NCBI RefSeq assembly: GCF_045037415.1
Contig: NZ_CP173438.1
Origin: Escherichia coli
GTDB taxonomy: Bacteria; Pseudomonadota; Gammaproteobacteria; Enterobacterales; Enterobacteriaceae
DNA: 64,000 bases
Reading direction: 5' to 3' (one strand)
A program made the position numbers. Shown here one piece after another: positions 42,901 through 45,900 of this stretch. The stretch's first letter is position 1. Each line of letters starts with the position of its first letter.

Positions 42901-45900
42901 CTGCTGAATTTCCTGCGCTTTTTGCTTCGCCATCTCCATCATCTCAGGCGGCAAACCTTTCGCCACCAACTTATCGGGATGGTGTTCACTCATCAGCTTA
43001 CGGTAGGCACGTTTGATGGTGGTCGCATCATCCGTCGGCTTCACGCCCAGCACATTACAGGCATCTTCCAGCGTCGGGCCACGCTGCGCTTGCTGCCAGT
43101 TACCACTGCCAGATTGCTGCTGATAACCGCCGCCAAACTGTGCACCGCCCTGCATCATGCGCAAAAACTGGTCAAACTGGGCGCGGGAGATGCCTAACTC
43201 TTCGGCAATGACATACAGCACCGCCCGTTCATTCGGGTGCAGTGAACCATCAGCAAACGCCGCCTGAATCTGGATCTCCAGAAACATACGAATTAAGTCA
43301 AAACGACCAAAGCAGACACTGCGAAACTGGCGCATCTTTTCGCGCAGCGGGTAATTATCTGATTTTCCCACCCGGAACGCATTTTGCGCCGCAGTACGGG
43401 AAGCGCCATGAAGGTTCATTCGGTCCATCAACTGGCTGGCGATATGAATATCAGCCTCCGTGACGCGACCTTTGGATTTGGTTAAATGGCCCATCACTTC
43501 AAAAGTGGTGGCAAAAAACAGCGCCTGACGCTCACGCTGGTTGGCGAACCACGCCATTTTACGGCTACGGGCTTTATCAAACATATGGCCAATTAACAGA
43601 CCTAACACTACGCCCCAAAAGCCGCCGCCCATCAGTAAGGCCACGGCCACGCCAATGATTTTTCCCCAATACTGCATATATTCCCCAAATCGACACACGG
43701 ATATCAGGGCTATCTCCCACAATATAAAGGTGCTTTTACCGTTTTCCGGCTGCGGTCAATTGTGGGACATCGCCTATAATTTGCATTATCATACCTGTCA
43801 TTCAATGCCGTGCCTAACACCACTGACGCTATTCGGACAGGATTAACACTAGCGTAGAGATGACGAGTACGTTAGTCTCTGACCGTTTGTCACGCGCAAC
43901 GTTACCGATGATGGAACAATAAAATCAACGTATGAAAAAACGTATCCCCACTCTCCTGGCCACCATGATTGCCACCGCCCTTTATAGTCAACAGGGACTG
44001 GCAGCCGACCTCGCCTCACAGTGCATGTTGGGCGTGCCAAGCTATGACCGTCCTCTGGTACAGGGCGATACCAATGACTTACCCGTGACTATCAATGCTG
44101 ACCACGCGAAAGGGGACTACCCGGATGACGCCGTGTTTACTGGCAGCGTGGATATCATGCAGGGTAACAGCCGTCTGCAGGCCGACGAAGTGCAGCTCCA
44201 TCAAAAGAGGCACCAGGACAACCGGAGCCGGTACGTACCGTTGATGCGCTCGGTAATGTCCATTACGACGATAACCAGGTGATCCTCAAAGGGCCGAAAG
44301 GCTGGGCGAATCTGAACACCAAAGATACCAACGTCTGGGAAGGTGATTACCAGATGGTGGGTCGCCAGGGGCGCGGTAAAGCGGACCTGATGAAACAACG
44401 TGGCGAAAACCGCTATACCATTCTGGATAACGGTAGCTTTACCTCCTGTCTGCCGGGTTCTGACACCTGGAGCGTGGTAGGTAGCGAAATTATTCATGAC
44501 CGCGAAGAACAAGTTGCGGAGATCTGGAACGCCCGCTTTAAGGTGGGTCCGGTACCGATCTTTTATAGCCCGTATTTGCAGTTGCCGGTGGGTGACAAAC
44601 GTCGCTCTGGTTTCTTGATCCCGAACGCCAAGTACACCACCACCAACTACTTTGAGTTCTACCTGCCATATTACTGGAACATCGCGCCAAATATGGATGC
44701 CACCATCACGCCGCATTATATGCATCGTCGTGGCAACATCATGTGGGAGAACGAATTCCGCTACCTCTCCCAGGCGGGCGCTGGCTTGATGGAACTGGAC
44801 TATCTGCCTTCAGATAAAGTCTATAAAGATGAACACCCGAACGATGACAGTTCACGTCGTTGGTTGTTCTACTGGAACCACTCCGGGGTCATGGATCAGG
44901 TGTGGCGTTTCAACGTCGACTACACCAAAGTCAGCGATCCTAGCTACTTCAATGACTTCGATAACAAATACGGTTCCAGTACCGACGGCTACGCAACGCA
45001 AAAATTCAGCGTTGGCTATGCGGTGCAAAACTTCAATGCCACCGTTTCAACCAAGCAGTTCCAGGTCTTCAGCGAGCAGAACACCAGTAGCTACTCGGCA
45101 GAGCCGCAGTTAGACGTTAACTACTACCAGAATGATGTTGGTCCGTTTGATACGCGTATTTACGGTCAGGCAGTGCACTTTGTTAACACCAGAGACGACA
45201 TGCCTGAAGCAACCCGTGTTCACCTGGAACCGACCATCAATCTGCCGCTCTCTAATAACTGGGGCAGCATCAATACCGAAGCGAAGTTGCTGGCAACCCA
45301 TTATCAGCAAACCAATCTTGACTGGTATAACTCCAGAAACACGACCAGGCTGGCAGAGTCCGCTAACCGTGTAATGCCGCAGTTCAAGGTAGACGGTAGA
45401 ATGGTCTTCGAGCGTGATATGGAAATGCTGGCGCCGGGCTATACCCAGACACTGGAACCACGCGCGCAGTATCTGTATGTGCCATATCGCGATCAGAGCA
45501 AAATCTATAACTACGACTCTTCGCTGCTGCAATCTGACTACTCCGGCCTGTTCCGGGACCGGACTTACGGCGGTCTTGACCGTATTGCCTCCGCTAACCA
45601 GGTGACGACCGGTGTCACATCTCGCATATATGATGATGCTGCCGTTGAACGTTTTAATATTTCCGTTGGTCAAATCTACTATTTCACGGAGTCTCGCACT
45701 GGCGATGACAACATAACATGGGAGAATGACGACAAAACGGGCTCACTGGTATGGGCAGGCGATACTTACTGGCGCATCTCCGATCGTTGGGGATTGCGTG
45801 GCGGGATTCAGTACGATACACGTCTGGATAACGTAGCGACCAGTAACTCCAGCATTGAATACCGTCGTGATGAAGACCGTCTGGTACAGCTGAATTACCG

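Follow-up and report, generated by a model that had tools for sequence, protein, structure and literature searches.

An apparent one-base frameshift in lptD of an Escherichia coli ST131 genome is probably a consensus error at a short A-run

The closest described counterpart of the locus analyzed here is the LptD (Imp/OstA) of E. coli ST131, WP_000746171.1, as found in strains 2/0, EC958 and JJ1886. Our locus has the same DNA bar one base, the same domains and the same genomic context, but differs from that gene in that its reading frame is broken by one missing A. Long-read contraction errors, which are flagged as 'frameshifted' by NCBI PGAP, offer a second point of comparison, as they share with our locus the same one-base homopolymer deletion, the same recurrence and, in most carriers, co-occurring contractions; unlike these errors, however, the window (the whole stretch of DNA that was analyzed, 64,000 nucleotides in length) shows only one such event in 64 kb, and a run of A5 is short for an error of this type. 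As background to such errors, the per-read accuracy of nanopore sequencing at homopolymers is only about 74-90%, with single-base indels dominating (PMC11610603; bioRxiv 10.64898/2026.01.14.699587). A third comparison is with the A_AAG sites of -1 frameshifting, including those of dnaX (A_AAA_AAG), IS1222 (G_CGA_AAG) and Bacillus cdd (A_CGA_AAG), with which the broken lptD shares the A_AAG tetranucleotide, a slip at this position restoring the frame (PMC5009743). In contrast to those sites, the lptD site is devoid of a tandem heptamer, a downstream structure, a Shine-Dalgarno-like stimulator and conservation, and any slippage there would be adventitious. Finally, the classical viable lptD hypomorph, lptD4213 (imp4213), is reportedly an in-frame deletion of 23 codons selected in the laboratory. 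If the lesion in our locus were real, it would resemble lptD4213 in having reduced functional LptD, with a leaky outer membrane expected; it differs from lptD4213 in that a frameshift at codon 92 would yield no functional protein unless recoded.

The window retains the conserved gene order djlA / lptD-surA-pdxA-rsmA-apaG-apaH, with lptD being divergent from djlA and upstream of surA-pdxA-rsmA-apaG-apaH, and the lptD fragments carry the Pfam domains LptD_N (PF03968) and LptD (PF04453). A single uninterrupted lptD frame comprising signal peptide, jellyroll and barrel is absent from the sequence as written and present once one A is restored, with the repaired LptD having 784 aa. The sequence-only reading of this DNA had claimed that both halves of LptD are present in different frames, and this was borne out by frame translations (Table 1; the sequence around 44196-44290 is GTGCAGCTCCATCAAAAGAGGCACCAGGAC). 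Frame 1, starting from the ATG at 43932, encodes the native N-terminus of LptD as far as VQLHQK, with AAG at 44205-44207 as codon 92; these 92 native codons cover the signal peptide as well as the beginning of the LptD_N domain, and are followed by 24 foreign codons and the stop at 44280-44282, giving a 116-aa product. The -1 frame is open, with no stop before the native C-terminus of LptD at 46285, and the protein from E93 on is identical to WP_000746171.1, based on DNA identity. The missing A falls in codon 91/92 of lptD. As for the A-run itself, which had been placed at 44203-44207, we found that it comprises only four A residues, since 44207 is already the first base (G) of the native GAG codon. 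The first start codon of the -1 frame, a GTG at 44279, overlaps the upstream TGA (as GTGA). Rescue via re-initiation at this GTG was considered and rejected, given that the resulting 668-aa product would lack the signal peptide together with the first 116 residues, including Cys31.

Table 1. Coordinates of lptD and of the features around its frame break (positions in the window)
Feature	Position	Strand	Remark
lptD, whole gene (LPS-assembly outer-membrane protein)	43932..46285	+	2354 bases vs. 2355 in relatives
A4 run, A5 in relatives (one A missing)	44203..44206	+	From alignment to SK1144 and identity to strain 2/0 after repair
Upstream ORF, 116 codons (92 native LptD, 24 out-of-frame, TGA)	43932..44282	+	
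Native lptD frame, resuming at GAG 44207-44209 and running to the normal stop	44207..46285	+	-1 relative to the upstream ORF
Downstream ORF, 668 aa, GTG start at 44279	44279..46285	+	Without signal peptide
A_AAG_AGG: fortuitous -1 slip tetranucleotide A_AAG, then AGG codon	44204..44210	+	Relevant only if the deletion is real

Alignment to relatives revealed that the window reads CATC-AAAAGAGG where the relatives read CATCAAAAAGAGG, a single A being missing, and that its lptD has a 100% match to many ST131 genomes bar one gap (WP_000746171.1). With one A re-inserted, the window was identical to the reverse complement of strain 2/0 (E. coli ST131, NZ_CP023853.1, 43150-107150) over all 64,001 bases, the missing A being the sole difference between the two, which speaks against a chance pattern. 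When compared by segments with strains 2/0 and AR_0086, 1-25000 and 50000-64000 were perfect matches and 25000-49999 displayed one gap, while comparison with SK1144 yielded five substitutions, one IS1397 (in SK1144 only) and one indel, namely the missing A at 44203. The comparison with close genomes that had been proposed from the sequence thus narrowed the lesion to one A in the lptD run, in a window otherwise identical to strain 2/0. The repaired window harbors 217 homopolymer runs of at least 5 bases, 17 of which are 7 bases long and 3 (A/T) 8 bases long, and only the lptD run differs from its correct length in the window; since the other 216 runs are correct, the assembly of the window is not generally noisy.

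Based on these and the following data, we surmise that the split lptD is a consensus error at an error-prone run, i.e., an artefact of sequencing or assembly, with a probability of roughly 0.85. One A of the A5 run would have been dropped while the consensus was being made, as expected of long-read homopolymer under-calling, and the ST131 strain most likely carries an intact and ordinary lptD, with no biological mechanism involved. This reading follows from the one-base contraction of A5 in an otherwise identical window, the recurrence of the same contraction in assemblies most of which are error-laden and the control contractions at other homopolymers, including those of folA; the same one-base contraction, its recurrence in unrelated assemblies and the control contractions also lend support to the earlier ranking of a homopolymer error above a real lesion. 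Speaking against an artefact, the window is otherwise clean, three RefSeq carriers (755, HS-01 and UID2309220007) are clean over 40 kb apart from lptD, and lptD exceeds three control runs in RefSeq genomes (see below). While the recurrence, the single-base nature of the lesion, its being the sole difference in 64 kb and the comparable miscalls at every neighboring homopolymer tested were seen directly, we infer the artefactual origin of the copy in the window.

An 80-base query across the site retrieved three RefSeq complete genomes with identical A4 sequence. With a 42-base query, seeding on carriers only, against 5,426 RefSeq complete E. coli genomes, A4 was found in five: YSP8-1 (GCF_004924255.1), C51 (GCF_030285565.1), HS-01 (GCF_044647535.1), 755 (GCF_048403405.1) and UID2309220007 (GCF_054888635.1). 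The contraction is absent, with the in-frame A5 kept, in 5,420 of the 5,425 RefSeq complete genomes that have lptD. One of the 5,426 'complete' genomes had no match to five queried segments of the window, lptD included, and may be incomplete or mislabelled. Pigs, cattle and humans were the hosts of the five carriers, with origins in China, Russia, Indonesia, Taiwan and Thailand, and lptD is annotated in all five as a pseudogene, 'frameshifted'. Each carrier is a singleton, from different lineages, and A4 is never fixed in a clade. In the three carriers compared for the content of the rluA-djlA intergenic region, C51 has IS621, 755 has IS1397 and UID2309220007 has espY1; this differing content indicates that at least these three are independent. 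As regards accompanying errors, YSP8-1 had 9 of 33 CDSs frameshifted in 40 kb and C51 had a frameshifted surA as well, whereas 755, HS-01 and UID2309220007 were clean over 40 kb apart from lptD.

The rluA-djlA spacer varies by lineage. In the window, it spans 42713-42861 and contains a REP/naRNA4-like element (Rfam naRNA4 match at 42737-42829), and in UID2309220007 a transposase remnant lies beside espY1. Other parts of the window also differ in content among these genomes. The IS1397 of SK1144 is situated in the caiA-caiB spacer (window ~62386-62389), with the window and strain 2/0 being without it. A five-gene block at ~25941-31113, between yabI and araC, encodes a PfkB kinase, a DHDPS-family protein and the TctC/TctB/TctA components of a tricarboxylate transporter; this block is present in ST131 (SK1144 and 2/0) and absent in 755, YSP8-1, HS-01 and UID2309220007, in which yabI abuts araC. 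A chromosomal ccdA/ccdB toxin-antitoxin pair lies at ~50693-51213, between apaH and folA, in ST131, and is absent in 755, YSP8-1 and HS-01; the ccdB of UID2309220007 contains an internal stop.

The RefSeq data also bear on whether a real deletion could have left a true lptD null, with the cell surviving by virtue of an unlinked suppressor or a second copy of lptD, or with the mutation having arisen in culture after isolation. In favor of this account, partial suppressors of the lethality of lptD depletion do exist, namely the deletion of ygfB, that of aceE, and exposure to acid or salt; the reported suppression, however, was only partial (PMC12706146). A second lptD locus was found in none of the RefSeq complete genomes, each having at most one place of match. 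Survival on a two-piece LptD would not work either, as the 668-aa ORF, lacking a signal peptide, is predicted from its sequence to yield a split protein that cannot be exported. A null would further require that the same base was hit independently in five or more lineages. We consider this account very unlikely.

Returning to a consensus error, we looked for the lesion among public contigs. The exact 116-aa product is found in 303 public contigs and is indexed in 374 collection blocks. Sorted by longest contig, 37 of these blocks exceed 1 Mb and 335 fall short of 50 kb, which leaves only 2 in the range from 50 kb to 1 Mb, while several of the listed members of the intact-LptD cluster have longest contigs of 67-260 kb, which we have taken as the size of short-read isolate assemblies. 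We read the gap between 50 kb and 1 Mb as near absence of the lesion from short-read isolate assemblies, with the proviso that blocks are not the same as assemblies. A scan of JGI metagenome contigs with a 35-mer was uninformative, since the A4 version gave 0 matches and the intact A5 positive control also gave 0.

To characterize the company that the lesion keeps, 23 further carriers were inspected, ten of them found via the 116-aa product, ten via the ST131-specific 668-aa product and three as RefSeq loci. All 23 contained indels relative to the repaired window, at 0.2-6.3 per kb, nearly all of which were one-base homopolymer deletions, with deletions far outnumbering insertions except in L008. 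Contractions recurred at C6 (46400), A6 (42329 and 43513), G5 (41804) and A8 (38973 and 51794), and in T7 runs as well. In the gene calls of these carriers, lptD is not alone in being broken, as rapA, rluA, djlA, pdxA, rsmA, folA, kefC and yaaU were also in pieces, and the 668-aa product has been reported by gene callers in other carriers. The ST131-type carriers found via the 116-aa or the 668-aa product all had further indels. This pattern is the signature of uncorrected long-read consensus. Taken together, other errors of the same kind were present in the 23 collection carriers, YSP8-1 and C51, and absent in the window, 755, HS-01 and UID2309220007 (40 kb). Some submitter-annotated entries, namely MUTS15/MUTS16 (BDY92xxx, BDZ01xxx; AP027450.1) and ECZU43 (GHMxxxxx), carry many of the truncated products at once (lptD, rluA, djlA, rsmA, yaaU and apaH), and resemble annotated submissions of uncorrected long-read consensus.

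As a control, a one-base contraction was simulated in ten homopolymers of neighboring genes, and the exact truncated products were looked up. All ten exist in public assemblies, in 7-465 contigs each: yaaU C5 in 465, rsmA A5 in 95, djlA T6 in 82, apaH A5 in 48, rluA A6 in 45, folA A5 at codon 58 in 29 and at codon 108 in 27, surA A5 in 11, apaH T5 in 9 and djlA T5 in 7, as compared with 303 for the observed lptD A5 site. The lptD site hence ranks high within a wide distribution and is not unique. Finding these simulated products, including those of folA, implies that essential genes are commonly 'frameshifted' at short homopolymers in public data. The folA gene (51299-51778, - strand) is a second essential gene that looks 'broken' in public assemblies, in the form of a truncated DHFR. 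The yaaU C5 run (54966-54970 on the + strand, the gene being on the - strand), with its 110-aa product, ranks highest of the 11 sites and is intact in the window. Among RefSeq complete genomes, there were 5 carriers for lptD A5 and 4 for surA C6; by comparison with the 5 for lptD, rluA A6, djlA A6 and rsmA A5 had 0 carriers each, these three control queries having been made with ST131 flanks, which may lower their sensitivity in other lineages. From these RefSeq controls with their ST131 flanks, the lptD A5 site therefore appears to be unusually prone to contraction. A second site of recurrent contraction is the surA C6 run (46399-46404, codon 21), which appears as C5 in 15 of the 23 inspected carriers and the 4 RefSeq complete genomes, and is intact in the window; this run overlaps a CCAGG Dcm site.

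We also considered Dcm methylation as a cause of the proneness of the lptD site. The lptD A-run is followed at a distance of 6 nt by a CCAGG Dcm site (44213-44217), and several of the recurrent short C/G-run contractions overlap CCWGG. The top control site, yaaU C5, has no CCWGG nearby, and current R10 models reportedly call CCWGG at about 99% (PMC11610603), which we counted against a role for Dcm; we make no causal claim in this regard.

The otherwise clean assemblies of the window and of three RefSeq carriers, together with the excess of the lptD site over the three control runs in RefSeq genomes (5 vs. 0, with ST131 flanks in the control queries), are also what one might see if the deletion were real and the cell survived on small amounts of full-length LptD generated by spontaneous -1 slippage, thus being a natural lptD hypomorph. 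In this scenario, which we regard as unlikely, the peptidyl-tRNA-Lys on AAG (44205-44207) would re-pair with AAA (44204-44206) while the rare AGG occupies the A site; upon slippage, GAG would be read next, resulting in exactly wild-type LptD. The sequence CAA_AAG_AGG does hold the minimal Z_ZZN site A_AAG, which is prone to -1 shifts in E. coli with its single tRNA-Lys, slippage being favored by slow A-site codons (PMC5009743), and AGG accounts for only 1 of the 47 Arg codons of lptD. Spontaneous -1 slippage has suppressed single-base deletions at an aggregate of 1-10% in two test proteins (PMC10861913). The sequence-only reading had reasoned that a true null is unlikely because lptD is essential, as LptD indeed is in E. 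coli (PMC10495129, PMC12706146). A weakness of this argument is that essentiality by itself is insufficient to dismiss a genuine deletion, given spontaneous slippage of 1-10% (PMC10861913) and an A_AAG site that the mutant sequence happens to create.

Several features of the locus and of its carriers nevertheless argue against such slippage: 1) there is no slippery heptamer X_XXY_YYZ, as T_CAA_AAG does not permit tandem re-pairing and only its A_AAG part can re-pair; 2) there is no downstream stimulatory structure, the fold of 44208-44300 (93 nt) having a z of -0.51 vs. shuffles; 3) inspection of the sequence 8-14 nt upstream disclosed no Shine-Dalgarno-like (AGGAGG-like) element; 4) each carrier stands alone in a lineage unrelated to the others, no clade being formed, and most of them are demonstrably error-laden; 5) equivalent 'lesions' are found in folA and in every other neighbor tested; and 6) contigs of 50 kb-1 Mb almost never carry the truncated product. 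The bile-salt media used for clinical isolation would also select against a mutant depleted of LptD. Depletion of LptD leads to growth inhibition, killing and hypersensitivity to antibiotics (PMC10495129, PMC12706146). Searching the literature, we came across no relevant account of a natural lptD frameshift in ST131. A narrower version, whereby A4 is real in the window isolate and in the few clean RefSeq carriers, forming a recurring self-rescuing knock-down with a few percent of wild-type LptD, seems to us slightly more doubtful still; such a knock-down might possibly be selected by phages or peptides that target LptD. Overall, a genuine hypomorphic deletion that either adventitious slippage or a suppressor would rescue makes up a small residual uncertainty of this analysis, a little larger than that for slippage taken by itself. 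If true, it would represent a natural case in which adventitious frameshift suppression sustains an essential gene, and would bear on LptD as a target of drugs and phages.

The coincidence of an A-run and A_AAG at the lesion is the only support for a more elaborate account, namely that the abundance of LptD is regulated by a programmed -1 frameshift that has evolved here, or by phase-variable switching. The in-frame A5 is ancestral and near-universal (5,420/5,425 genomes), and there is neither a heptamer nor a stimulatory structure (z = -0.51) at the site. Just 4-5 A residues do not suffice for transcriptional slippage to be efficient, nor for phase variation. We view this account as exceedingly improbable, and as effectively refuted already by the non-conservation of the contracted run. 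Transcriptional slippage was likewise rejected as a candidate, a run of four A being far too short.

With a consensus error as our preferred reading, the gene is an ordinary ST131 lptD, and nothing here is new biology. Read as an artefact, the split lptD is of concern for data hygiene alone; it is seen on 303 contigs as well as in 5 RefSeq 'complete' genomes, where it has turned an essential gene into an annotated pseudogene. Of the sites miscalled in public E. coli assemblies, the lptD A5 run is one of the more frequent, and surveys of pseudogenes and gene loss should mask such sites.
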